DNA of 64,000 nucleotides from Escherichia coli. GTDB taxonomy: Bacteria; Pseudomonadota; Gammaproteobacteria; Enterobacterales; Enterobacteriaceae. Each line of letters opens with the position of its first letter. Within the stretch, counting starts at the first letter, position 1. Made by a program: the position numbers and the translations under genes. Below the pieces are notes generated by a model. That model was not told where the DNA came from, ran no database searches, and saw nothing but the letters and a program-made list of their open reading frames with translations. Positions 9,767-42,774 of the stretch are shown one piece after another. The stretch lies in the NCBI RefSeq assembly GCF_045037415.1, contig NZ_CP173438.1; one strand, given 5' to 3'.

Positions 9767-10247
9767 TGTTCAGCAGCCCGCGGAGATGCGCTTTAACCGC
9801 GCCCGTGTCCGGCGGGCGTTTGTCACGATTGGGCAGCGTCATATGCGTGATGCCCGTCGGCTGGTGATGCGCCGTGCGCGGTCGGCACCGGGTGAAAACC
9901 CCGGTTATCAGACCGGACGCCTGGCTCGTTCGATTGGTTACATGGTGCCGAGAGCCAGTAAAAAGCGAGCCGGTTTTATGACACGCATTGCCCCTAACCA
10001 GCGCAACGGTAAGGGGAACCGGATGATCTCTGGTGACTTCTATCCGGCGTTTCTGTTTTTTGGTGTCCGGGGAGGAGCAAAACGTCGTCGTAGTCATCAT
10101 CGTGGTGCATCCGGTGGCAGCGGCTGGCGGCTGGCTCCACGTAATAACTTTATGGTGGAAACGCTTGAAAAGAACCGCAGCTGGACACGCTATTTTCTGG
10201 CGCGGGAATTGCGTAAATCACTGAAGCCGGAGCGACGACACAGATGA
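9741..10247 (+). CDS. Virion morphogenesis protein (HK97 gp10 / Mu G-like)
   Basis: 168 aa, basic; position between head-completion and tail genes. Confidence 0.55.
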   Translation: MATPFFHVDVQQPAEMRFNRARVRRAFVTIGQRHMRDARRLVMRRARSAPGENPGYQTGRLARSIGYMVPRASKKRAGFMTRIAPNQRNGKGNRMISGDFYPAFLFFGVRGGAKRRRSHHRGASGGSGWRLAPRNNFMVETLEKNRSWTRYFLARELRKSLKPERRHR

Positions 10248-10804
10248 AACTGACGCCTGTTATTGCTGCGCTGCGTGTCCGCTGCCCGTATTTTGAAAAC
10301 CGGGTGGCAGGCGCGGCCCAGTTCAAAAATCTGCCGGAGGTCGGAAAGCTGAAACTCCCGGCGGCGTATGTGGTACCGGGGGATGATTCTCCGGGAGAAA
10401 ACAAAAGCCAGACCGACTACTGGCAGGAGCTGAAAGAGGGCTTCTCCGTGGTTGTCATACTGAGTAACGGGCGTGATGAGCGCGGTCAGTTTGCCTCGTA
10501 TGATGTGGTGGACGATGTCCGGCAGATGCTCTTTAAGGCCCTGCTGGGCTGGAACCCGGAAGCGTGCGGTAACCCGATTACCTATGACGGCGGCACGCTG
10601 CTGGATCTGAATCGTCATGAGCTGATTTATCAGTTCGATTTTTCGGTCATCAGCGAGCTGACTGAAGACGATACCCGCCAGCTGGATGATCTGAACAGTC
10701 TGGATGAACTGCAAACGCTGGCGATTGATGTTGATTATCTCGATCCCGGTAACGGGCCTGACGGCGATATCGAACATCACACCGAAATAACCCTTCCTTC
10801 CTGA
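10244..10804 (+). CDS. Tail-associated protein of the Mu-like module (function uncertain)
   Basis: 186 aa; overlaps the upstream gene by 4 nt; acidic C-terminus. Confidence 0.5.
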   Translation: MKLTPVIAALRVRCPYFENRVAGAAQFKNLPEVGKLKLPAAYVVPGDDSPGENKSQTDYWQELKEGFSVVVILSNGRDERGQFASYDVVDDVRQMLFKALLGWNPEACGNPITYDGGTLLDLNRHELIYQFDFSVISELTEDDTRQLDDLNSLDELQTLAIDVDYLDPGNGPDGDIEHHTEITLPS

Positions 10805-10812
10805 GGATCCTC

Positions 10813-10983
10813 ATGTTTGTCAAACCTGTTAAAGGGCGGTCAGTGCCTGACCCTGCCCGCGGCGACCTTTTGCCCGCCGAAGGGCGAAATGTTGACGAGA
10901 ACAACTACTGGCTGCGCCGTGAAGCAGCGGGTGATATCCGGCGCGTGAATAAAAAGGTGAACACCGATGACGATAAGCTTTAA
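10813..10983 (+). CDS. Small hypothetical protein, 56 aa (below the ORF-track cutoff)
   Basis: ATG at 10813 to TAA at 10981; fills the gap before the sheath gene. Confidence 0.3.
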   Translation: MFVKPVKGRSVPDPARGDLLPAEGRNVDENNYWLRREAAGDIRRVNKKVNTDDDKL

Positions 10984-12464
10984 CACCATTCCGTCGAATA
11001 CGCTGGTTCCGCTGTTTTATGCGGAAATGGATAACCAGGCGGCGAATACTGCACAGGACAGCGGAGCATCGCTGCTGATTGGTCATGCCAATAACGGTGC
11101 AGAGATTGTTGCCAACAGTCTGGTGCTGATGCCGTCGGCAGACTATGCACGCCAGATTTGTGGTGCGGGAAGTCAGCTGGCGCGTATGGTCGAGGCTTAT
11201 CGCCAGACTGACCCGTTTGGCGAGCTGTATGTGATTGCCGTTCCGGAAGCCACAGGCGCGGCGGCAACGGTTACGCTGACGGTGACCGGGGAGGCAACCG
11301 AAACCGGCACGGTGAATGTTTATGTGGGACGTACCCGCGTGCAGGCACCGGTGACCAACGGCGATAACGTCGCGACGATTGCCAGCAGTATCAAAGATGC
11401 CATCAATGCCGTTCCGACCCTGCCGTTTACTGCCTCATCTTCGGCAGGCGTGGTCACACTGACCGCGCGTCATAAGGGGCTTTGCGGGAATGAAATTCCT
11501 GTCAGCCTCAATTACTACGGCTTTGGTGGGGGCGAAGTGCTGCCAGCGGGCGTACAGATTGCCGTGGCGACGGGGAACGCCGGAACGGGCGCTCCTGTTC
11601 TCACCGGCGCGGTGGCTGCAATGGCGGATGAGCCGTTTGATTATATCGGCCTGCCGTTCAACGACACGGCCTCCGTTAACACGCTGGTGACCGAGATGAA
11701 CGATACCAGCGGTCGCTGGAGCTATGCGCGTCAGCTGTATGGTCATGTGTATACGGCAAAGATCGGCACGCTGTCAGAACTGGTGACCGCAGGTGACCAG
11801 TTTAACCAGCAGCACATTACCCTGGCGGGGTACGAAAAAGAGAACCCAGACGCCTGCCGACGAGCTGGCGGCAAGCCGTACCGCCCGCGCAGCGGTGTTT
11901 ATTCGCAACGATCCGGCACGTCCCACGCAGACCGGTGAGCTGGTGGGTATGCTGCCTGCGCCGAAGGGGAAACGGTTCACGATGACCGAACAACAGACCC
12001 TGCTGTCTCATGGCGTGGCAACGGCGTATGTCGAAAGCGGGGTGCTGCGCATTCAGCGTGATGTCACCACGTACAGGAAAAACGCTTACGGTGTTGCGGA
12101 TAACAGCTACCTCGACAGCGAGACGCTGCATACCAGCGCGTATGTGCTGCGCAAACTGAAATCCGTCATTACCAGTAAGTACGGGCGTCACAAGCTTGCC
12201 AGCGACGGTACCCGCTTTGGTCCCGGTCAGGCGATTGTCACCCCGGCGGTGATCAAAGGGGAACTGCTGGCAACCTACCGTCAGCTTGAGCGTGCGGGGA
12301 TCGTGGAAAACTACGAACTGTTTAAGCAGTACCTGGTTGTGGAGCGTGATGCCAGCGATCCGAACCGCCTGAACACGCTGTTCCCGCCTGACTATGTTAA
12401 CCAGTTGCGTGTCTTTGCCGTGGTTAACCAGTTCCGTCTTCAGTATTCAGAGGAGTCTGCATAA
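10967..12464 (+). CDS. Contractile tail sheath protein (Mu L-like), interrupted by an apparent frameshift at the A-run 11835..11839
   Basis: Two overlapping ORFs (10967..11938 in frame 2, 11793..12464 in frame 0) together give ~500 aa; C-terminal part has a sheath-like LFPPDYVNQLRVFA motif. Confidence 0.7.
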
Positions 12465-12820
12465 TGGCCCGTATCGGGGGAACCTGTTATTTCAAAATTG
12501 ACGGTCAGCAGCTATCGCTGACCGGCGGCATTGAGGTGCCCATGAACAGGACGGTAAATGATGACATCATCGGCCTGGACGGTTCAGTGGACCGCAAGGA
12601 AACTCACCGTGCACCTTATGTCAAAGGGACCTTCAAGGTGCCGAAGAATTTTCCGGTGAGCAAAATCACCTCGTCTGATGAGATGACCATCACTGCCGAG
12701 CTGGCGAACGGTCAGGTCTATGTATTGTTGTCTGCCTGGCTGCACGGTGAAGCGAACCATAATGCCGAAGAAGGCACGGTTGATCTTGAGTTCCACGGTG
12801 AAGAAGGGGATTACCAGTGA
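12464..12820 (+). CDS. Tail tube protein (Mu M-like)
   Basis: 118 aa immediately after the sheath gene. Confidence 0.8.
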   Translation: MARIGGTCYFKIDGQQLSLTGGIEVPMNRTVNDDIIGLDGSVDRKETHRAPYVKGTFKVPKNFPVSKITSSDEMTITAELANGQVYVLLSAWLHGEANHNAEEGTVDLEFHGEEGDYQ

Positions 12821-13140
12821 TTGAGCTTGTACTTAAAAAACCGATCATCGCCCACAAAGAAACACTGCATGTGCTGGAAATACGTGAGCCTACGTATGAC
12901 GAGATTGAGGCGCTGGGGTTCCCTTTCTCTGTTTCGCCTGATGGTGGTATGAAAATGGACAGTCAGGTGGCGCTGAAATATATCCCGCTTCTGGCCGGGA
13001 TCCCGCGCTCGTCTGCAGCGCAGATGACGAAGCTGGATATTTTCAAGGCAGGCATGATTGTAATGCGTTTTTTTACCGGCTTGGAGACGGAAGAGACCTC
13101 CGGAAGCGATTCTACAATGTCGCGTGGTTCTGGAAATTAA
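12817..13140 (+). CDS. Tail assembly chaperone (G-like)
   Basis: 107 aa immediately upstream of the tape-measure gene. Confidence 0.7.
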   Translation: MIELVLKKPIIAHKETLHVLEIREPTYDEIEALGFPFSVSPDGGMKMDSQVALKYIPLLAGIPRSSAAQMTKLDIFKAGMIVMRFFTGLETEETSGSDSTMSRGSGN

Positions 13141-13232
13141 ACCCCCTTGAACTTCGCAGGACGGCTATTTCCCACTTTGCTGATCTGGAGGCAGAGGCCG
13201 TCCGTATAAATGAGGAGATGAAGCATGGCTGA
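12817..13232 (+). CDS. Tail assembly chaperone, predicted -1 frameshift extension product (GT-like)
   Basis: Slippery heptamer T_TTT_TTT at 13068..13074 in the zero frame; the -1 frame stays open to TGA 13230..13232, abutting the tape-measure ATG at 13225. Confidence 0.5.
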
Positions 13233-15126
13233 TAATTTTCAGCTGAAAGCCATCATCACCGCCGTTGACAGGCTGTCCGGCCCGCTTAAAGGTATGCAGC
13301 GTCAGCTTAAGGGGTTTCAGAAAGAAGTCTCCAGCCTTGCTCTGGGCGCTGCCGGGGCGGGTACTGCAATAATGGGGGCACTGGCACTCCCTGTAAAATC
13401 AGCCATCACCCTTGAATCGAAGATGGCTGATGTCCGCAAAGTGGTGGACGGTCTGGATACGCCGGATGCGTTTAAGGCCATGACGGAGCAGGTACGCGCT
13501 TTGTCTACTGAGCTTCCCATGTCTGCAGACGGGATCGCGGAAATTGTGGCGGCTGGCGGTCAGGCCGGGATTGCACGTGATGAACTGATGCAGTTTGCCA
13601 CTGATGCGGTGAAGATGGGCGTGGCCTTTGATACCACGGCTGAAGAGTCCGGGCAGATGATGGCCCAGTGGCGTACTGCGTTTAATATGACGCAGGATGA
13701 AGTGGCTGGGCTGGCTGACAAAATCAACTACCTTGGTAATACCGGCCCGGCGAATGCGAAGAAAATCTCCGATATTGTTACGCGTATTGGTCCTTTAGGT
13801 GGTGTTGCAGGTGTGGCTTCCGGCGAAATCGCGGCAATGGGGGCAACCATTGCCGGGATGGGCGTGGAGTCAGAAATTGCCGCCACAGGGATCAAGAACT
13901 TCATGCTTTCCCTGACCGCGGGAAATTCAGCGACAAAATCGCAGAAACAGGCATTACGTTTTCTGCGGATCAATCCGAAGAAATTAGCTGCTGATATGCA
14001 GAAAGATGCCCGGGGAACCATGCTGTCTGTACTGGATGCGATGGCTAAAGTGCCTAAAGAAAAACAGGCAGCTGTGCTGAATGCCCTGTTCGGGAAAGAG
14101 TCTCTGGGCGCGATAGCACCTCTGCTGACTAACCTTGATTTGTTGCGTACCAACTTCAGGCGGGTTGCGGATTCCCAGCAGTATGGCAGTTCGATGCAGA
14201 AGGAATATGCTTCGAGGGCAGCGACGACGGAAAACCAGCTTTTACTTCTGCAAAATCAACTTGATGCCATTTCTTCCACTCTGGGGGAAACGTTTCTTCC
14301 TGAGGTTAATGATGGTCTTGAAGCGGTAAAACCGCTCCTTGAGGAAGTGAGAACGTTTGTCCGTGAAAACCCGGAGCTCGTTAAGACCATTGCTAAAATC
14401 GGTCTGGCTTTACTGACAGTGGGGGCCGCTGCAGGCTCTTTGTCCAGAATCATGAAAGTTCTCGGCGGTGTGATGAATATGACGCCTGCTAAGGGTCTGA
14501 TTGCTCTTCTGGTCGGTGCCGCTTACCTCATTATTGATAACTGGGAAACCGTAGGTCCTGTCATAAAAAAAGTCTGGCGCGTGGTGGATGAAACGGCGCA
14601 GGCGATGGGGGGATGGGAAACTGTTCTGAAAGCGATCGCCCTGTTTATGACAACCAAATGGGTTGCTGACGTTACCAAATCCATTACCGCAGTGACCAGA
14701 GAGATGCGTACGCTGGGGAAGGTGTCGGCAGAAACGGGATTGATGGGGAAAGGCCGCGGCTTTATCGGGAAGGCCGGGGTATATGGTTTTCTGGGAACCC
14801 TGATGTATGAGCCGGTTAAAGATACTCTGGAAAGTGTTGTTCCTGAAGATACAGTTAACTGGCTGGATAATAAAGGGCTGTTTCTGGCTTCAGACTGGAC
14901 GCCTTTTTTTGATCGTAAAGAGTACGAGCAGTATCAGGCCAGCCTGAGTCAGTACAAACCCAATGTTCCGCTGTTGAATCCATCTTCTTCCATGACACAG
15001 CACAGCGAACTGAAAGTCACGTTCGAGAATGCTCCGCCAGGCATGAAGATAATTGATGTACCGGGCAAAGCCGATCCCCTGATGAAAATCACGCACGATG
15101 TGGGGTATTCTCCATTCAGGCGATAA
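13225..15126 (+). CDS. Tail tape measure protein
   Basis: 633 aa, Ala/Gly-rich with helical repeats; position after the chaperone. Confidence 0.9.
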   Translation: MADNFQLKAIITAVDRLSGPLKGMQRQLKGFQKEVSSLALGAAGAGTAIMGALALPVKSAITLESKMADVRKVVDGLDTPDAFKAMTEQVRALSTELPMSADGIAEIVAAGGQAGIARDELMQFATDAVKMGVAFDTTAEESGQMMAQWRTAFNMTQDEVAGLADKINYLGNTGPANAKKISDIVTRIGPLGGVAGVASGEIAAMGATIAGMGVESEIAATGIKNFMLSLTAGNSATKSQKQALRFLRINPKKLAADMQKDARGTMLSVLDAMAKVPKEKQAAVLNALFGKESLGAIAPLLTNLDLLRTNFRRVADSQQYGSSMQKEYASRAATTENQLLLLQNQLDAISSTLGETFLPEVNDGLEAVKPLLEEVRTFVRENPELVKTIAKIGLALLTVGAAAGSLSRIMKVLGGVMNMTPAKGLIALLVGAAYLIIDNWETVGPVIKKVWRVVDETAQAMGGWETVLKAIALFMTTKWVADVTKSITAVTREMRTLGKVSAETGLMGKGRGFIGKAGVYGFLGTLMYEPVKDTLESVVPEDTVNWLDNKGLFLASDWTPFFDRKEYEQYQASLSQYKPNVPLLNPSSSMTQHSELKVTFENAPPGMKIIDVPGKADPLMKITHDVGYSPFRR

Positions 15127-15190
15127 TAACCCTACTTTAATCAAGTAGGGTTATTGAGTGGTAAAGTTTGTGCTGAATGTAGGAGAGAAT

Positions 15191-15679
15191 ATGAAGAAAA
15201 TGTTTATATTGTTGTTGGCTGCAGGACTGCCATTAAACTCCTTTGCGAAGCCAGTAACGGAAAAGCAGCTTGCTACATACTTTATAGATAACGTTAAAAC
15301 TTCAGCAGATAAGAATATAGATCTAGATGTAGGTGGAATAAATAGACTGTCTGTAATATGCCCAGCAAAGTCGGCAAGTGGAACTCTTTTAATAAAAAAA
15401 GCATCCTACGAGTTTAATAAAGGTATTGGTGTTTTTGATTTTGAAAATAACTCACAATCTGCACCATTGGCTTTTATTGTACCAATTAGTGAGGATGAAA
15501 ATAACTTTGACTCGGAAATTATTGGTTTCTCTTTTGCATTTAAAATGCCAAGAGGGCAATTCTTTGTTGATGTTACGAAATCAGGGAAGGTAAAGGCTGG
15601 CGTAAATATTAGTGGTGAAAGCGGAATTACTTATTCATCATGTAGAATAGATACTCATAATGTTGATTATGATCTTTAA
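15191..15679 (+). CDS. Secreted hypothetical protein, 162 aa; AT-rich cargo gene inside the tail module
   Basis: ATG at 15191 preceded by AGGAGAG; Sec-type signal peptide MKKMFILLLAAGLPLNSFA; low GC; own terminator. Confidence 0.6.
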   Translation: MKKMFILLLAAGLPLNSFAKPVTEKQLATYFIDNVKTSADKNIDLDVGGINRLSVICPAKSASGTLLIKKASYEFNKGIGVFDFENNSQSAPLAFIVPISEDENNFDSEIIGFSFAFKMPRGQFFVDVTKSGKVKAGVNISGESGITYSSCRIDTHNVDYDL

Positions 15680-15694
15680 TTTTATTACCTAATA

Positions 15695-15722
15695 AAAAAC
15701 CGCGTTTACACGCGGTTTTTAT
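15695..15722 (+). terminator. Rho-independent terminator after the secreted cargo gene
   Basis: AACCGCG-TTTACA-CGCGGTT hairpin followed by TTTTTATTT. Confidence 0.6.
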
Positions 15723-15735
15723 TTGAGGTGACACC

Positions 15736-17109
15736 ATGGATTTTTCTCATATTTCTTCGTACCTATCCTCTAATTCTCGAAGTGGCTGGCGTGAAAAGCT
15801 ACTTGAAGCATCATTTCGAGGTGTGCCGTTTAAGGTTGAAGAAGAAAGTGCGGGAACCGGTCGCCGTGTGGAAACACATGAATACCCGAACCGCGACAAG
15901 CCTTATACCGAAGATCTGGGAAAAGTCACTTTCCGCCCGTCCATCACAGCTTATGTGGTGGGAGATGACTGCTTTGACCAGCGCGATCGCCTGATTGACG
16001 CGCTGAATAAACCCGGTCCCGGCACGCTTGTCCATCCGACATACGGTGAGATGAAAGTCTGTGTTGACGGGGAAGTTCGGGTCAGCACATCGAAAAGTGA
16101 AGGGCGTATTGTCCGCTTTGACCTGAAGTTTGTCGAAGCGGGAGAACTCTCTTACCCCACATCAGGTGCGGCGACGGCGCAGACGCTGATGTCATCCTGT
16201 TCTGCACTGGATGACTGCATCAGTGACAGCTTCAGCGGTTTCAGTATCGATGGCGTGGCGGATTTCGTGCAGAACGACGTTATCGGTAATGCCAGCATAA
16301 TGCTGGGGTATGTTTCTGATGCGATGAAAGTGGTGGATTCTACCGTATCGGATGCCGCCAGGCTGTTGCAGGGGGATATCTCGGTACTTCTGCCGCCGCC
16401 ATCGTCAGGCAAAAATTTCGTTGAGCAGGTGCAGAAAATGTGGCGTACCGGGAAACGCCTTTATGGTAACGCCAGCGACCTGGTCACCATGATCAAAACG
16501 CTTTCCGGTGTCAGCCTCGGCAGCGATCTGCAACCGCGCGGCGTCTGGAAAACGGACAGTAAAACCACCGCCACGGCTACGCAGCAGCGTAACGTGGTTG
16601 CCAGCACCCTTCGTACGACCGCAATCAGCGAAGCGGCGTATGCCGTCACGCGATTGCCTGCGCCAACAACTTCCGCGGTGATGCAGAATTCCGCAGTGGG
16701 GCAGGCAACAACACCCGCGCAGAGCACTGGCTGGCCTGCCGTCACGCATCCGGCACTGAACAATGCACCGGCGGTGAAAAACACGGTTGACCTGCCGACG
16801 TGGGAAGAACTGACTGACATTCGCGACACACTGAATACGGCAATTGATAAGGAGTTGTCCCGTACAACCAGTGATGCGCTGTTTCTGGCGCTGCGCCGGG
16901 TGAAAGCAGATCTGAATGCGGATATCAACACGCGCCTTGAACAGTCTGCACGGATCATTCAGCGCACACCGGATGAGGTTTTACCCGCGCTGGTGCTGGC
17001 GGCGACCTGGTTTGATAACGCGGCGCGTGACGCGGACATTATCCGGCGTAATGCCATTACGCATCCCGGCTTTGTGCCGGTGATCCCTCTGAAGGTGCCA
17101 GTGCAATGA
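15736..17109 (+). CDS. DNA circularisation protein (Mu N-like)
   Basis: 457 aa; position after the tape-measure gene in a Mu-like order. Confidence 0.75.
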   Translation: MDFSHISSYLSSNSRSGWREKLLEASFRGVPFKVEEESAGTGRRVETHEYPNRDKPYTEDLGKVTFRPSITAYVVGDDCFDQRDRLIDALNKPGPGTLVHPTYGEMKVCVDGEVRVSTSKSEGRIVRFDLKFVEAGELSYPTSGAATAQTLMSSCSALDDCISDSFSGFSIDGVADFVQNDVIGNASIMLGYVSDAMKVVDSTVSDAARLLQGDISVLLPPPSSGKNFVEQVQKMWRTGKRLYGNASDLVTMIKTLSGVSLGSDLQPRGVWKTDSKTTATATQQRNVVASTLRTTAISEAAYAVTRLPAPTTSAVMQNSAVGQATTPAQSTGWPAVTHPALNNAPAVKNTVDLPTWEELTDIRDTLNTAIDKELSRTTSDALFLALRRVKADLNADINTRLEQSARIIQRTPDEVLPALVLAATWFDNAARDADIIRRNAITHPGFVPVIPLKVPVQ

Positions 17110-18185
17110 ACGACAATGTCACGCTACGGGTAAATGGCCGGGAGTGGAATGGCTGGACATCGGTGCGCATCGGTGCCGGTATTGAACGGCTGGCGCGGGA
17201 TTTCAGTGTGGAGATCACCCGCCAGTGGCCGGGTGATGAGGGTATCACCACGCTTCAGCCGCGCATTAAAAACGGTTCAAAAGTGGAAGTGCTGATTGGT
17301 GATGAGCTGGTGATCACCGGCTGGGTGGAGGCGACTCCCGTTCATTACGATGCCCGTTCGGTCAGCACCGGTATTGCCGGACGTAGTCTGACGGCTGACC
17401 TGATTGACTGTGCAGCCGAACCGACACAGTTTAACGGACGCTCGCTGGTGCAGATTGCGCAGGCGCTTGCTGCGCCTTTCGGCATTGAGGTGGTGAACAG
17501 CGGTGCGCCATCGGGTGTTATTCCTGATGTTCAGCCTGATCACGGTGAAACGGTGATTGAGGTAATCAACAAAATACTCGGTCAGCAGCAGGCACTGGCT
17601 TACGACGACCCGCACGGCAGGCTGGTGATTGGCGGTATTGGCTCAACGCGGGCACATACCGCGCTGGTACTTGGGGAAAATATCCTTTCCTGTGATACGG
17701 AGAAGAGTATCCGGGAGCGGTTTTCTGTTTACCAGGTGGCGGGGCAGCGTGCCGGAAACGACGATGATTTCGGTGAGGCCACCACCACCGCGCTGCGGGC
17801 CCGCACAGAGGACGCATTTATTGCCCGTTACCGTCCGATGTATATCAGGCAGACAGGGCAGGCTACGGGGGCAGGCTGTATTGCGCGTGCTGACTTTGAA
17901 GCCCGACAACGGGCGGCGCGGACGGATGAAACCACCTATGTGGTGCAGGGCTGGCGACAGGGTAACGGTACGCTGTGGCAGCCCAACCAGCGGGTGATTG
18001 TCTTTGATCCGGTCTGTGGTTTTGACAATACCGAACTGCTTGTCTCGGAAGTCACGTTTACTCAGGACCAGAACGGCACCCTGACGGAAATCCGTGTCGG
18101 CCCGCCTGATGCTTATCTGCCTGAACCCGAAGACCCCGGCGCGCGGAAAAAGAAAAAAGCCAGAGTACAGGAGGACCCGTTCTGA
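17106..18185 (+). CDS. Baseplate hub protein (Mu P-like)
   Basis: 359 aa; overlapping chain of baseplate genes. Confidence 0.75.
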   Translation: MNDNVTLRVNGREWNGWTSVRIGAGIERLARDFSVEITRQWPGDEGITTLQPRIKNGSKVEVLIGDELVITGWVEATPVHYDARSVSTGIAGRSLTADLIDCAAEPTQFNGRSLVQIAQALAAPFGIEVVNSGAPSGVIPDVQPDHGETVIEVINKILGQQQALAYDDPHGRLVIGGIGSTRAHTALVLGENILSCDTEKSIRERFSVYQVAGQRAGNDDDFGEATTTALRARTEDAFIARYRPMYIRQTGQATGAGCIARADFEARQRAARTDETTYVVQGWRQGNGTLWQPNQRVIVFDPVCGFDNTELLVSEVTFTQDQNGTLTEIRVGPPDAYLPEPEDPGARKKKKARVQEDPF

Positions 18186-18733
18186 TGAGGGCGATTGAAG
18201 CCATGCAGCGACAACTACTCGGCCTGATTGGGCGGGCCGTGGTGAAAAGCATCAGTGCCGCCACGAAATGTCAGACCGTGGATGTGTCCCTGATTGCCGG
18301 TGAACCCAAAGCCGGGGTTGAACATCTTGAACCCTACGGTTTTACCGCAAGGGCAAACAGCGGTGCGGAAGCGGTGGTGTTGTTTCCGGATGGCGACCGT
18401 TCTCATGCGGTGGTTGTTACGGTGTCGGACCGGCGCTACCGCCTGAAAGGACTGCAGACGGGTGAGGTGGCTGTCTATGACGATCAGGGGCAGTCCGTGA
18501 CGCTGACCCGGGAGGGGATCGTGGTGGACGGTGCAGGTAAAACGATCACGTTTCGCAATTCACCTAAAGCACGTTTTGAAATGGACCTGGAAGTGACAGG
18601 ACAGGTGAAAGACCTGTGCGACTCCGGCGGCACCACCATGTCAGCGATGCGGCTTGCCTATAACGGGCATCGTCACAGAGAGAACGGTCAGGGCAGTAAC
18701 ACCGACAAACCGGATAAAGCGATGGAGGCATGA
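18185..18733 (+). CDS. Baseplate assembly protein V / spike
   Basis: 182 aa; position and size as in Mu-like baseplates. Confidence 0.75.
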   Translation: MRAIEAMQRQLLGLIGRAVVKSISAATKCQTVDVSLIAGEPKAGVEHLEPYGFTARANSGAEAVVLFPDGDRSHAVVVTVSDRRYRLKGLQTGEVAVYDDQGQSVTLTREGIVVDGAGKTITFRNSPKARFEMDLEVTGQVKDLCDSGGTTMSAMRLAYNGHRHRENGQGSNTDKPDKAMEA

Positions 18734-19158
18734 TGGAACTGTGGCTGACGGTGAACGGTAAACGCACCTGCGCCAGCGCACCGCTGGATCCGCTGACCCG
18801 CGCCGTGGTGATTTCCCTGTTTACCTGGCGGCGGGCGGAGCCTGATGACAACGCCGACGTCCCGATGGGATGGTGGGGGGATACCTGGCCTGCGGTACAG
18901 AATGACCGTTACGGCTCCCGGCTGTGGCTGCTTCAGCGCAGCAAACTGACCAATCAGCTGGTGCAGACGGTAAGGGGGTATATCCGCGAATGCCTGCAAT
19001 GGATGATTGATGACGGCGTGGTGTCCCGTATTGATCTGGATATCCGCCGCACCGGGATTAATGAACTGGGTAACAGTATCACTCTCTGGCGTCGTGACGG
19101 ACCGGTAATGATTTCTTTTGATGATCTGTGGAGTGCGATAACGCATGGCGGACAGTGA
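18730..19158 (+). CDS. Baseplate protein (GPW/gp25-like)
   Basis: 142 aa between the V-like and J-like genes. Confidence 0.7.
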   Translation: MMELWLTVNGKRTCASAPLDPLTRAVVISLFTWRRAEPDDNADVPMGWWGDTWPAVQNDRYGSRLWLLQRSKLTNQLVQTVRGYIRECLQWMIDDGVVSRIDLDIRRTGINELGNSITLWRRDGPVMISFDDLWSAITHGGQ

Positions 19159-20203
19159 ATTTCAGCGCCCGACGCTGGCAGAAAATATCAGTATGCTCCG
19201 TAACGATTTATTCGCCAGGCTGGACGTCAGCGACACGCTCCGGCGCATGGATGAAGACGTGCGGGCAAAGGTGTATGCGGCGGCGCTGCATACGGTTTAT
19301 GGGTACATCGATTATCTGGCAATGAATATGCTGCCTGACCTGTGCGATGAGTCCTGGCTGGCACGACATGCTGCGATGAAACGGTGTCCGCGCAAGGGGG
19401 CCACGGCTGCCAGCGGGTATATGCGCTGGGAAGGTGTCAGCGATGGCCTGAAGGTGACTGCCGGGAGCGTGATTCAGCGCGATGACCTGGTTCAGTACAC
19501 GGCAACTGCCGATGCAACCAGCTCCGGTGGTGTCCTGCGTGCGCCGATCACTTGCTCAACTACAGGCGCGGTCGGTAACGCTGACGACGGTACGGCATTA
19601 ATCCTGGTCACGCCGGTGAATGGTCTGCCGTCTTCCGGTGTTGCAGATACCCTGACTGGCGGATTCGATACTGAAGATCTGGAAACGTGGCGCGCCCGCG
19701 TCATTGAGCGGTATTACTGGACGCCGCAGGGCGGGGCTGACGGGGACTATGTCGTCTGGGCTAAAGAAGTGCCCGGCATTACCCGCGCATGGACATACCG
19801 TCACTGGATGGGAACGGGAACTGTCGGTGTGATGATTGCCAGCAGTGACCTGATTAATCCCATTCCGGAAGAATCAACGGAAACGGCGGCAAGACAACAT
19901 ATCGGGCCACTGGCCCCGGTGGCAGGCTCTGATTTATATGTATTCAGGCCGGTGGCGCATAAAGTGGATTTTCATATCCGCGTGACGCCGGACACACCGG
20001 AAATACGGGCTGCCATCACCGCCGAGTTGCGTTCGTTCCTGCTGCGTGATGGTTATCCGCAGGGAGAACTGAAGGTGTCGCGTATCAGTGAAGCGATTTC
20101 CGGTGCGAACGGGGAATACAGCCATCAGTTGCTTGCACCGGCAGACAATATCTCCATTGCAAAAAATGAACTGGCGGTACTGGGGACGATTTCATGGACG
20201 TGA
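19145..20203 (+). CDS. Baseplate J-like protein
   Basis: 352 aa; position in the Mu-like baseplate order. Confidence 0.8.
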
Positions 20204-20778
20204 CAAACGATGATTACATCCGTCTGTTGTCGGCACTGTTGCCCCCCGGTCCGGCGTGGTCATCCAGCGATCCAGCGATTGCCGGTGCGGCACCGTCATT
20301 AACCCGCGTTCATCAGCGTGCGGATGCCCTGATGCGGGAGCTGGATCCGCGCACCACCACTGAACTGATAAACCGCTGGGAGCGTCTGTGCGGCCTGCCG
20401 GATGAATGTATTCCGGCGGGAACGCAGACCCTTCGCCAGCGTCAGCAACGGCTGGATGCGAAGGTTAATCTGGCGGGCGGCATCAATGAGGATTTTTACC
20501 TTGCACAGCTTGCTGCCCTGGGCAGACCAGACGCCACCATCACGCGATACGACAAAAGCACGTTCACCTGCTCATCGGCCTGTACTGACGCAGTGAATGC
20601 GACGGAATGGCGGTATTACTGGCAGGTCAACATGCCAGCCGCCACCAACACCACCTGGATGACATGTGGCGATCCCTGTGATTCCGCACTGCGTATCTGG
20701 GGCGATACCGTTGTCGAGTGCGTGCTTAACAAACTCTGCCCTTCGCATACCTACGTAATTTTCAAATATCCGGAGTAA
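20194..20778 (+). CDS. Tail protein (Mu gp48 / YmfQ-like)
   Basis: 194 aa; directly upstream of the tail fibre. Confidence 0.7.
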
Positions 20779-20781
20779 TCC

Positions 20782-23157
20782 ATGCATCGTATAGACACGA
20801 AAACCGCGCAGAAGGATAAGTTCGGCGCGGGTAAGAACGGTTTTACCCGTGGTAACCCCCAGACCGGCACGCCTGCCACCGATCTGGATGATGACTACTT
20901 TGACATGTTGCAGGAAGAACTTTGCAGCGTGGTGGAGGCCTCCGGTGCCAGTCTGGAGAAGGCGCGGCACGACCAGCTGCTTACCGCGCTTCGTGCGCTG
21001 CTGTTAAGCCGCAAAAATCCGTTTGGCGATATCAAATCGGATGGCACGGTAGAACGCGCTCTTGAAAATCTGGGGTTACAGGATGTAAAAGCTGGTTCAT
21101 TGAACAATCTGTACACTAACCATTCCCGTAGTGTCTTAATGGAATTGCCGTTATTATTCCCAGACTACGATACGGTGCTGGCTGCTCAGTCTGGTGCGGA
21201 ATATATGTATCCACAGGGATTTGTGGTGACAGGAGAAAAAATCTATCTGAGTTATACCGTTGAGCCAAAGCAGACACGGAACGTTATAGTTCAGTACACA
21301 ACATCCGGCGAATATGAGGGATATTATTATGTCGATAATGGAGGTCGTGGCGTTGTCAGCGAAGGCCTTGTGGTGACAACGGATTACGGTGGATTACGTT
21401 TGTTCATGTCAGGAGAAAATGGATTACTGAAACAGTTTTCGCTTGATGGGGCAATTTCTGGTTCAGTATTGCCGTTAATTGATGAACATGATGTCGGTGT
21501 TTACAACCAGTTCAGCTATCGTAAAAACCGCTGGGTGGTTGAACAGTCAGCGCCGGAAGTGGGAGGCCTGATCACCCGCACAGTATTTGCGGTGTATGAT
21601 TTTCAGTTTCGTCGGACAGGGACATTCACATTACCGTTGCATGATTCCGGATATATCACGGAAAGCACAGACAGCTATGCAAGACGCTTCACAAAACGTC
21701 AGGGAATTGCTGTGGGAGACGATTATATTGCCTGTTCTTATGGTGGCTATTTTAATACCGGGGCATCAGCCGGATTTAACCAGTTTCAGGGGGTTAAGGT
21801 CTTTTCTCCGGATGGAGTAAAGCAGCAGGAATCCATTCTTCATCCCCAAAAAATGATAGATGTGCTTACCAGGCAGGGTTTTACACCTTCGCGCATTGAG
21901 AACGAAGGAATTTGTATTTCTGACGACGGCGGCAGTATATATTCGCTTTATATCTTTCTGGAGCGTGGGTTACCACAGGCTTATCAGAAAGGAATTGTTC
22001 TGATGAAAGAGTTCAGTACTGGCAGAGATGCTATTGATTTTCGTCAGGCAGCCTGGTTGTACACGGGGTTTGATGTGTCTCATGCCAGTATTGGAACATT
22101 TCCCCGTAGTGCCCAGGGGTTGGTAAACCCGGTGTTGGGGACGGTATTCACATCCCTGTCTGAAATTCTGGCATATATGCGTTCTGTGAGTCAGAAATGG
22201 TTTTGTCTGCATACAACCACGACACCGATTAAAGATCTGAGTGGAAATGACATTCCTGCTGACAATTATGTGTTCATCAAGAATGCTAATAACCAGACAT
22301 TCTATATAACGCAGGAGTCAGCTGAAGGTGGAATAAAATATAAAGCTGTCACTACAGACAGCGGAGAATATGGTTTTCAGCGACAAAGAGAGGCAATCTG
22401 GTCCAATGTTATCACCATCGCACAAAAGAGCGATGGTGAGGATCAGTTTAATCGTATTATCGCTGCCTCGAAAAGTGGTTCAGGTAAAAATCAGGATAAA
22501 ATACTGGTAGTTGACCAACAGGCATCAGAGGGGAATAACACGCTGGTAATTGGCGGTGGTTCATCTGTGTTCAGGTCAGCGACAGTGATTGATTTTGCAA
22601 CGAATCAGGATGCAAATGCCACAGGAGGAGAAAAGAGATGGCGCATAGATTCATCAGGAAATCTCCGCCCTTATACAGATAATACGTATTCGATCGGTTA
22701 TGCCTCATGGCGACCCGCACAGGTTTATTCAGCTACGGGAAGTATCAGTACATCAGACCGGACTCATAAACAGGACGAAACAATTCTGTCGGATGCAGAA
22801 AAAAGGGTTGCCAGAAAGCTGCTCGGGTATATCTGTCGGTTCCGTTTCAGAGATGCAGTGTCCAGCAAAGGGAACGCAGCCAGATGGCATGTAGGAGTGA
22901 TTGCTCAGGACGTACAGAAGGTCTTCTCTGAGGAAGGGCTGGACGCTTTTGATTACGGTATTTTGTGTCGTGATGAATATCCGGCGGAATATGAAGTGGT
23001 TTACGGGACTCGTATGGAGCTTGGTCCTGACGGACTCCTTACAATGGAAGAATACGATACCGGAGAGCGCAAGCTGGTCAGGGAGGCTGGTGAAATAATG
23101 TCTGTAAGGAATGATGAGCTGCATTATTTCATGCTGGCATCGCTGTCTGGCCAGTGA
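20782..23157 (+). CDS. Tail fibre protein with C-terminal intramolecular chaperone (peptidase S74-like) domain
   Basis: 791 aa; AT-rich mosaic central part; C-terminal ~130 aa resembles the self-cleaving chaperone domain of fibres and tailspikes. Confidence 0.8.
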
Positions 23158-25477: not shown

Positions 25478-26910
<1,433 letters not shown>

Positions 26911-32245: not shown

Positions 32246-32837
32246 AGTGTATTCCTTATTGTTGCTTAGTTAGGGTAGTCACTATATTTGCGACTGAGCT
32301 GGTCGCTATTTTTAACCAGGCTGAAAAATTGAGTCAATATATCGAAAGCGGTAGTTGGCGGGCATAAGTATGTAATGATGATGCTGCACTGGTGTTGAAT
32401 ATTATTCACGCCAAACTTTCCTTATTGAGTAACGTCGTCGCAAGTGGCCTCAATGATTTTAGACCATTATCAGAGGTTTGGGGGCGATGGGGAGAGATTT
32501 AGTGCTGTGGAATGTTGTGGTACTGATGAATATTTATATCCCGGATTGGTAGGGAAAAAGTTTTTTTCATGCACTATTTTTGCAAATATTTCTATATGGG
32601 AAGCGGTTTTGTTGCGGATTAATTCATAAAGAAATGCATTTGGGTGTTGGCTGGAAGAGACGCTGGTAGATTTTATTGAGCCAGGAGGGGCGGGGTAATG
32701 TGCTGTATCGATATGCTTTGGCAATTGCGTGTGCCGCAGATGGAGATGAAATGCCAATAAAAAAGCCTGAGTTCGATGAGGGACGAACTCAGGCTGGTGT
32801 TATGTTTTACAGTAACACGCCTCGGCGCGTTGGCTGA

Positions 32838-33953
32838 TTAGAACTGGTAGACGATACCAACTGCAAACTGGTCATCAGCTGCTGCGCCAGTAATGGCGGC
32901 GTCATCTTTATCCAGCATGTTGAATTTGTATGCAGTATAAACGTTCATGTTCTTATTGAAGTAGTACCAGGTACCAACTTCAATGTAGTTCACACGGTCA
33001 GCGTCAACATATCTATGTCCAGGTACACCTTTGATATCTTTACCTTTAGAGTACACATAACCTAAGGACGGACGCAGACCAAAGTCGAATTGGTACTGAA
33101 CAACCGCTTCAAAGTTCTGGGTTTCATTGATAAGTTGATCACGCATTATTGTATTGCCTTCTTGATCGGCAACACCTGTATCAATAGAACCCGGAGTCAT
33201 ATTACGAGTTTCACCGTACATTACAGCTGCGTAGACATTGTTCGCGTCATACTTTGCAGCCAATGACCACAGTTCAGCATTTGAACCGTTTCCATCGGCA
33301 ACTTGATCGTTGGTGCGATCAGATTTGCTATATGCACCAACGATACCAAAACCATTGATGTTATAGTCTACAGACAACGCATAGCCGTCACCATTTTGTT
33401 TCTTAGTGCTACGGTTGCTGTTTTTGCCTTGGTACTGAATCGCAAAATCAAGACCATCAACCAGGCCAAAGAAATCAGAGTTACGGTAGGTTGCAACACC
33501 GTTGGTACGACCGTTCATGAAGTTGTCAGCGGAAGCCCAGGAATCGCCACCCCATTCAACTAACATATCGGTATAAGCTGCGGCATCATAAGCAACACCG
33601 TAGTTACGGCCATAGTCAAATGATCCTAACTCGTTATATTTCAAACCGGCGAAGGTTAAACGGGTTTTTTCTTGGTTTTCACCTTCAGGCTTGCTGGCGT
33701 CGAGGTTGTATTCAAACTGACCGAAACCAGTCAGTTCGCTGGTGATTTGGGTTTCACCTTTAACACCGAAACGAGCATAGGAGGTATCTTCGTTTTCGCT
33801 GTTATTATCATCAGTATTTGACCAGATGCGTTCGCCAACCATCTTGCCGTAAAAATCAACTTTATTGCCATTTTTATTATAAATTTCAGCCGCATTTGCT
33901 GCGCCAGCAACTAATAACGCCGGGACCAGCATTGCCAGAACTTTTCTTTTCAT
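32838..33953 (-). CDS. yedS: Outer-membrane porin (OmpC/OmpF family, YedS-type), apparently intact
   Basis: Start at the internal Met ([21 protein letters not shown] signal) gives 371 aa ending in the porin motif VYQF. Confidence 0.85.
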
Positions 33954-34500
33954 TATGTATTCCCTTGTGATTATAATCTTCATGAATATATCAATAAGTG
34001 CTGTTATCCAAAAAAAGCACATTTGGATACTATTCTATGAAGTTCATTTTATTTTAAAGATTACATGTAACAAATGTATTTAAAAGATTTCAAAATGTTT
34101 CTAATCTATTTAATATAATTCATAGTTATGAATTCTGAATATAAATATTCACGAATATTATGGATATATATCAATATGTTATGAGTTGATCGAAAAAATA
34201 GGGAGTATCAATGATTGTTGCGCTAAACGGCTGGTGTGATCTCGCGCACATTAATGAAGGCATAAAAAAAAGCCGGCATCATGCCGGCCCAAAAAATATA
34301 AACAAGACGATAAAAGGCTAATAACGGAGGCATGATGACACAGAAAAATAAAAAGGTATAATTGTAATCAGTACCAATATATTGATTGAATGAATTAATA
34401 AAGCCGAAATCAAAGATAAATAACATCGTTCAAATCGATTTTTCCTGTATTCACCGCCGTTGCGCAAAATTTATCTATTTGTTCAAAAAATGATTGAGTC

Positions 34501-42687: not shown

Positions 42688-42774
42688 AACACATCAGATT
42701 TCCTGGTGTAACGAATTTTTTAAGTGCTTCTTGCTTAAGCAAGTTTCATCCCGACCCCCTCAGGGTCGGGATTT
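42688..42774 (+). ncRNA. dsrA: Small regulatory RNA DsrA
   Basis: 87 nt AACACATCAGATTTCCTGGTGTAACGAATTTTTTAAGTGC...CCCGACCCCCTCAGGGTCGGGATTT match the remembered DsrA sequence, including its terminator hairpin. Confidence 0.9.

Follow-up and report, generated by a model that had tools for sequence, protein, structure and literature searches.

The 64,000-nt stretch of Escherichia coli DNA analysed here (the window) contains an intact gene at the chromosomal position occupied by yedS in K-12 (the yedS slot), and this gene very likely encodes a functional general-diffusion porin from one of at least three ancient families of alleles which recombination swaps at this position, with expression in standard culture probably being low. 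Its expression, silencing, assembly into a trimer and permeability are what we infer from the comparisons below. The exact protein encoded in the window is already present in RefSeq (WP_000824383.1), and the intact gene is real, albeit a common and catalogued variant. The most interesting by-product of the analysis is the cassette-like polymorphism of the slot, and the polymorphism itself was directly observed.

The porin coding sequence, the positional equivalent of yedS, is located on the minus strand (32838..33953) and consists of 371 codons plus a TAA stop codon ending at position 32838, without interruption in either the window sequence or its ORF list. The longest mechanically predicted ORF starts at an ATG at position 34022 and has 394 aa, and the ATG at position 33953 gives 371 aa; RefSeq places the start of the identical gene (WP_000824383.1, 1116 nt, annotated 'porin') at the equivalent of the ATG at 33953, and 100% identical coding sequences are annotated 'porin' in other E. 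coli genomes. A ribosome binding site (AAGGGA, 33961..33966, minus strand) was read 7 nt upstream of this ATG, and a GAGGG-type layout of the ribosome binding site is also found at ompF and ompC. Codons 1-21 (33891..33953, minus strand) form a predicted signal peptide with cleavage expected after ANA, as judged by comparison with OmpC and OmpF and not with a dedicated predictor; it matches the N-terminus of K-12 YedS exactly, and is near-identical to those of OmpC and OmpF. The protein ends in AVGIVYQF, i.e. with the terminal aromatic Phe of a beta-signal, and a predicted intrinsic terminator is located 43 nt past the stop codon (32764..32795, minus strand), with a 12-pair hairpin followed by TTTTTTATT. 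A 371-codon ORF with such matches is far beyond chance. The original prediction of an uninterrupted 371-aa reading frame with a signal peptide and a C-terminal barrel motif is therefore borne out, both by the ORF running from 33953 to 32838 with its Pfam Porin_1 match (E-value 9e-119), and by the presence of the porin-type N-terminus and the terminal Phe.

The gene order in the window is hprS (plus strand), hchA (minus), the porin gene (minus), rseX (minus), drpB (plus), yedJ (plus) and dcm (plus), and the neighbourhood of K-12 yedS has the same gene order in reverse orientation. K-12 yedS (b4496) is annotated as a pseudogene, and its translation is broken by a frameshift near codon 222 and, at approximately codon 162, by an in-frame stop (FFG*VDGL), so that it is disrupted, in agreement with the original prediction. 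Reading through the stop and the frameshift gave a reconstructed K-12 YedS of 397 aa, which is 69% identical to OmpN and 62% identical to OmpC, and which is also represented by an intact K-12-type allele in strain PD4 (WP_001613326.1, 397 aa, annotated 'porin OmpC'). The PD4 allele is 97% identical to the reconstructed K-12 YedS and 54% identical to the window porin, and scores above the cut-off of the OmpC subfamily (537.6 bits). The window gene had been described as yedS-type, and this holds for its slot, signal peptide and flanks, but not for its sequence: the identity of the window porin is 54% with the reconstructed K-12 YedS, against 57% with OmpF, 54% with OmpN, 54% with PhoE and 52% with OmpC, so that its similarity to K-12 YedS does not exceed that to the paralogous porins.

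It could be argued that the window gene is the un-mutated ancestor of K-12 yedS, from which it would differ only by the lesions, and the common slot, the identical signal peptide and the flanks of 90-100% identity would fit such a relationship. However, we consider this to have next to no chance of being correct, as the DNA of the coding block is just 37-76% identical per 100-nt window, the proteins are 54% identical and belong to different NCBIfam classes, and an intact K-12-type allele exists separately in PD4; K-12 yedS minus its lesions was consequently rejected as an identification of the window gene. K-12 yedS and the intact K-12-type alleles have the slot, flanks, upstream region, signal peptide and terminator region in common with the window, whereas the proteins differ in length (397 aa for the K-12 type, 371 aa for the window type), in nearest relatives (OmpN at 69% and OmpC at 61-62% versus OmpK35 and OmpF), and in classification, with the K-12 type passing the OmpC cut-off and the window type passing no subfamily cut-off. 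The name 'yedS' hence covers proteins which are only ~54% identical to one another, and results obtained with one yedS allele, or with K-12 reagents or arrays, need checking before they are transferred to another.

Over 20 kb around the porin gene the window matches several clinical genomes at 100% identity, among them 81009, H105 and the Ecol_AZ series, all of which we take to be ST131, and the host would belong to the same E. coli lineage as strains 81009 and H105. A separate feature of this region is the non-coding spacer between hchA and the porin terminator (32444-32757, ~590 nt), which contains only short chance ORFs, has a G-over-C skew of up to 0.48, and is 86-99% identical between strains.

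With regard to protein family, the window gene is, on the available sequence and model comparisons, a general porin of the OmpF/OmpC/PhoE superfamily, with the OmpF/OmpK35 type as its nearest relatives. The match to Pfam PF00267 (Porin_1) scores 397.2 bits against a gathering cut-off of 23.7, and spans residues 27-371 of the protein and positions 1-337 of the 337 in the profile. Scores were below the curated cut-offs for the NCBIfam OmpC subfamily (NF007841, 416.6 versus 484 bits), the OmpF equivalog (NF007446, 450.7 versus 583 bits) and the PhoE equivalog (415.8 versus 599 bits), and membership of the OmpC subfamily or the OmpF equivalog was ruled out on this basis. A sequence search of solved structures gave Klebsiella pneumoniae OmpK35 as a full-length match with 490.9 bits, followed by E. 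coli OmpF (399 bits) and OmpC (~312 bits). An AlphaFold2 model, made with a 45-sequence alignment as input, has 16 strands and a mean pLDDT of 81.3, and its top PDB match in Foldseek was OmpK35 (5o77, TM 0.91, 63% identity), with Omp35 and OmpF (TM 0.88 for OmpF) next. The Porin_1 match, the full-length OmpK35 match and the 16-strand model are all in agreement with the earlier description as a general porin, while the label 'OmpC-family' is appropriate in the broad superfamily sense but not for the subfamily, given the score of the latter and the closer likeness to OmpF and OmpK35.

The similarity with OmpK35 (PDB 5o77, 9hn1) consists of the top sequence and fold match, the 16-strand barrel, the VEWGGD.W motif in loop L3 and the constriction residues, whereas ~37% of the residues differ and loops L6 and L7 are longer in the window porin. 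The genes also differ in location, with ompK35 presumably being the ompF-locus gene and the window gene occupying the dcm-yedJ-drpB-rseX slot. Likewise, E. coli OmpF, OmpC, PhoE and OmpN resemble the window porin in superfamily, fold, pore architecture and export signals, with 52-57% identity, but are encoded at other loci (aspC-ompF in K-12 for OmpF), and the window porin scores below every equivalog and subfamily cut-off. It is not one of the two major porins. From family membership we would expect Sec-dependent export, BAM-mediated assembly via the C-terminal Phe and trimeric general diffusion, and the mature protein would be a 16-stranded beta-barrel, presumably a trimer, with a pore narrowed by loop L3.

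The OmpF constriction residues K16, R42, R82, R132, D113 and E117 correspond to K37, R61, R98, R149, D129 and E133 in the window porin. A 10-sequence alignment shows no variation at any of the six; among the 45 aligned sequences this applies to five of them, while E133 is retained in at least 90%. The L3 motif is LVEWGGDSW in the window porin, as in OmpK35, where OmpF and OmpC have LPEFGGD. Alignments also revealed an insertion of ~14 codons (residues ~260-273, 33135..33176, minus strand), which lengthens the predicted loop L6 relative to the 357-aa subtype of the same family found in strain ST130, and which appears in the AlphaFold2 model as a long beta11-beta12 hairpin. The distinctive L3 motif and the unusually long L6 hairpin, together with a loop hypervariability typical of phage and colicin receptors, could point to a specialised channel or receptor, such as a PhoE-like anion- or substrate-selective pore, or a docking site for phages or colicins. 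We regard this as improbable, as the L3 motif is shared with OmpK35, which is a general porin, the score for the PhoE equivalog is well under its cut-off, and the basic ladder and acidic L3 residues are the OmpF set, while a role as receptor would in any case be compatible with that of a general porin. We therefore favour a general-diffusion porin, which, when made, would provide an extra route across the outer membrane for small hydrophilic solutes including beta-lactams, and would display its variable loops at the cell surface.

Next we compared the drpB-to-hchA region of the window with those of K-12, PD4, ST130 and NC101. In this five-strain alignment the flanks are 90-100% identical, and the 200 nt upstream of the ATG together with the signal-peptide codons are 97-100% identical across the allele families, whereas the identity in the block encoding the mature protein ranges over sliding windows from 37 to 76% versus K-12 and from 38 to 80% versus NC101. 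The comparison with NC101 is the sharpest: the flanks are 99-100% identical, there are no differences at all at 34152-33856 and 32864-32766, and 368 mismatched columns lie inside 33855-32865. Because the strong divergence between the window and NC101 is confined to this segment, we took its ends as the borders of a divergent cassette (32865..33855, minus strand; mature residues ~12 to ~341), which leaves the first ~11 codons of the mature protein and the last 9 codons of the gene outside, and is the only strongly divergent part of the locus in the NC101 alignment and in sliding-window identity. All allele families share their promoter region and 5' UTR, and likewise the signal peptide and the terminator. 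This arrangement would be explained if the allele families replace one another at the slot by homologous recombination, with crossovers in the conserved signal-peptide and C-terminal segments, since every family would then inherit these shared parts.

The distribution of the families was determined in 5,426 complete E. coli genomes, using core-only queries and at least 80% coverage, as full-length queries also gave matches to the signal-peptide segment and across families. The window family was found in 1,626 genomes (30%), the NC101 family (352 aa) in 1,140 (21%) and the K-12 family in 1,662 (31%), so that at least three deeply diverged families of alleles occur in the yedS slot. A further 998 genomes (~18%) are in no family at this coverage, and may contain IS-split copies, deletions or further alleles; two inspected genomes outside the family counts contained an ST130-type copy and an IS3-split copy, respectively. 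Within the window family, ~900 genomes have at least 95% identity and ~700 contain the ST130 subtype at ~87% identity, and the 991-nt coding core is at least 99% identical in ~600 complete genomes. The window porin and the ST130 subtype are near-identical over residues 1-180, and their differences are in the predicted loops L4-L7.

The nearest proteins outside E. coli are from E. fergusonii (83% identity), Citrobacter (75%), Enterobacter and Leclercia (72-76%) and the K. oxytoca group (~70%). In E. fergusonii, Citrobacter and K. oxytoca the gene for this relative is located directly 3' of dcm-yedJ(-drpB), which makes the window family a widespread positional ortholog of the slot. In E. fergusonii GCA_002965935.1 there are two tandem porins in the yedS slot (6001-7086 and 7663-8772 of the region examined), one being 83% identical to the window porin and the other belonging to the OmpC subfamily (532 bits). 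This tandem pair may be a remnant of an ancestral pair which gave rise to the E. coli allele families.

We then used the Nei-Gojobori method, with the window allele as reference, to estimate dN/dS. The ratios were 0.11 overall and 0.04 for the barrel plus L3 versus ST130 (dS 0.57), 0.07 and 0.04 versus E. fergusonii (dS 1.46), 0.08 and 0.04 versus Citrobacter (dS 1.72), and 0.15 and 0.12 versus NC101 (dS ~1.5). The high dS for NC101 is remarkable given the identity of 99-100% between the flanks of these strains. The level of synonymous divergence between the families (0.6 to >1.5) is at or beyond that between E. coli and Salmonella. Among the four E. coli families, 75% of the residues in predicted extracellular loops are variable versus 44% of the residues elsewhere (p = 2e-8), and between the window porin and the ST130 subtype these figures are 32% and 5%. 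Judged from these ratios, the porin is under strong purifying selection and has long been kept functional, with the variation concentrated in predicted surface loops. This combination of long-kept function and surface variation is the main argument that the porin is probably made and matters.

Loss of the gene was nevertheless seen repeatedly. A K-12-type porin gene is frameshifted in O157:H7 NE1127, in E. coli AZ 186 an IS1 element splits an allele which is 100% identical to the window gene (1501-3392 of the region examined), and in VTB96816v (3001-5397) and PE164 (1313-3819 of the respective regions examined) the porin gene is split by IS3-family elements. Gene loss at the yedS slot is hence recurrent and the slot tolerates it, and these events fit either dispensability of the porin or selection for porin loss under antibiotics. 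In O157:H7 NE1127 both drpB (1570-1850) and the adjoining K-12-type porin gene (2501-3687 of the region examined) are annotated as frameshifted.

The independent inactivations in K-12 and O157:H7 and by IS1 and IS3 insertions are what would be expected if the ORF were intact but silent and dispensable, i.e. a selectively neutral gene which drifts towards the pseudogene state of K-12 and contributes nothing to the envelope of this strain. The upstream region with its 27% G+C, which is typical of H-NS-bound DNA, and the finding of serum antibodies to K-12 YedS in only 1/141 healthy people (PMC11242715) can be read in the same manner. We nevertheless find this unlikely, as dN/dS values of 0.04-0.11 over a dS of 0.5-1.7 speak for selection having acted on the protein over a long time, the residues of the pore are conserved, and the core is present at 95% identity or more in the ~900 genomes mentioned above, where the sampled matches are mostly full-length coding sequences annotated 'porin'. 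Moreover, the bias of the variation towards the loops is expected of a protein exposed at the surface. A functional porin with probable low expression in standard culture, which would be switched on under particular conditions, accounts better for these observations; this pattern of expression is suggested by analogy with Salmonella ompS1 and with rseX, which is repressed by H-NS/StpA.

Any selective explanation for the slot polymorphism is at this stage conjecture. A tentative scenario, which we rate well below an even chance, is that the slot is a porin cassette locus, where the three or more families are held at intermediate frequency (~30%, 21% and 31% of complete genomes) by balancing or frequency-dependent selection (exerted by phages, colicins, antibody or antibiotics) and are shuffled between lineages by recombination which always breaks in the conserved signal-peptide and C-terminal codons. 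In such a scenario the window allele, as an OmpK35-like pore whose L6 hairpin is extended by 14 residues, would be a lineage-marking surface antigen, a phage receptor and a route for beta-lactams in a pandemic ExPEC clone.

The region between the porin gene and rseX (33954..34264, minus strand) is AT-rich (~27% G+C), must hold the promoter and 5' UTR, and is 92-100% identical to that of K-12. A promoter scan gave 7 sites versus 6.5 expected from shuffled sequences, with 34139-34112 and 34073-34046 among the matches, and no promoter was placed on this basis. The rseX small RNA gene is located upstream of the porin gene (34265..34354, minus strand; Rfam RF01401, 93.8 bits versus a gathering cut-off of 50) with its terminator at 34290-34270, and the rseX-yedS arrangement is identical in K-12. 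Expression of rseX is repressed by H-NS/StpA (PMC8313858). The K-12 ompC and ompN genes likewise adjoin genes for porin-regulating small RNAs, micF and micC respectively, and thus all three porin loci pair a porin gene with a small RNA gene.

A CRP-like palindrome TGTGAtctcgcGCACA was read between rseX and the porin gene (34235..34250), and its K-12 counterpart ggTGTGAtcaggcGCACAtta, assigned to yedS, is among the CRP sites which Footprint-seq identified in vitro (PMC12871828, a 2026 preprint). A yedS transcript is detectable in K-12, and drops 2.5-fold upon sigma-E induction together with those of ompF, ompC, phoE and ompN (PMC2731931). As the upstream region is common to the alleles, the same control is expected for the window allele.

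The predicted pairing of MicF with the translation start of the window gene (-60 to +45, the only part covered, so that MicF may pair elsewhere in the 5' UTR) had an energy of -12.6 kcal/mol and was equalled by 55% of the shuffled sequences, whereas the ompF control gave -27.4 kcal/mol with no shuffled sequence as good. Warner et al. reportedly found the expression of YedS to be dependent on MarA and MicF, and this MicF dependence is without counterpart in the pairing predicted at the translation start of the window gene. As cited in two later papers, the same authors described a functional YedS in carbapenem-resistant clinical E. coli (Warner et al. 2013, Antimicrob Agents Chemother 57:1935, cited in PMC4048246 and PMC11267920), so that, going by those citations, the existence of an intact and functional yedS in some clinical E. 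coli was published as early as 2013. Like the window porin, that protein is a porin of the yedS slot in a non-K-12 E. coli; it is functional and, according to the citing papers (PMC4048246, PMC11267920), has been linked to carbapenem entry. The original prediction had raised the possibility that this strain expresses an extra general porin, and this is plausible in view of the purifying selection and of the published clinical YedS.

A further parallel is provided by Salmonella ompS1, a quiescent porin gene which is silenced by H-NS/StpA and relieved by LeuO (PMC4264507). Dependence on OmpR is a further trait of OmpS1-type porins. Like OmpS1, which is a minor porin with poor expression in culture, the window porin has an AT-rich upstream region; the equation with OmpS1 is by naming. 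E. coli yedS is labelled 'ompS1' in one study (PMC2731931) and 'outer membrane protein S1' is the source name given for K-12-type proteins, but the name thus attaches to the K-12-type family and not to the window type. A search of the E. coli literature for 'outer membrane protein S1' returned only work on Salmonella.

Minor porins are clinically relevant, as they may admit beta-lactams and carbapenems once OmpF and OmpC have been lost. Where the yedS slot holds an intact porin gene, a further gene must be lost or repressed for the strain to turn impermeable, and such a scenario has already been reported for a carbapenem-resistant isolate.

Finally, several features were noted in the surroundings of the locus. 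To its left, the yersiniabactin high-pathogenicity island (irp2, ybtA, ybtPQXS and integrase) is located at tRNA-Asn (window positions ~9000-22900, as placed by offset from the annotated identical region of strain H105), and a copy of IS1397 lies between zinT and msrQ (~25500-26900). The gene for the DsrA small RNA is located at 42688-42774 (plus strand, Rfam 102.5 bits), close to dsrB and rcsA as is usual, with the fli flagellar operon to the right of this region.
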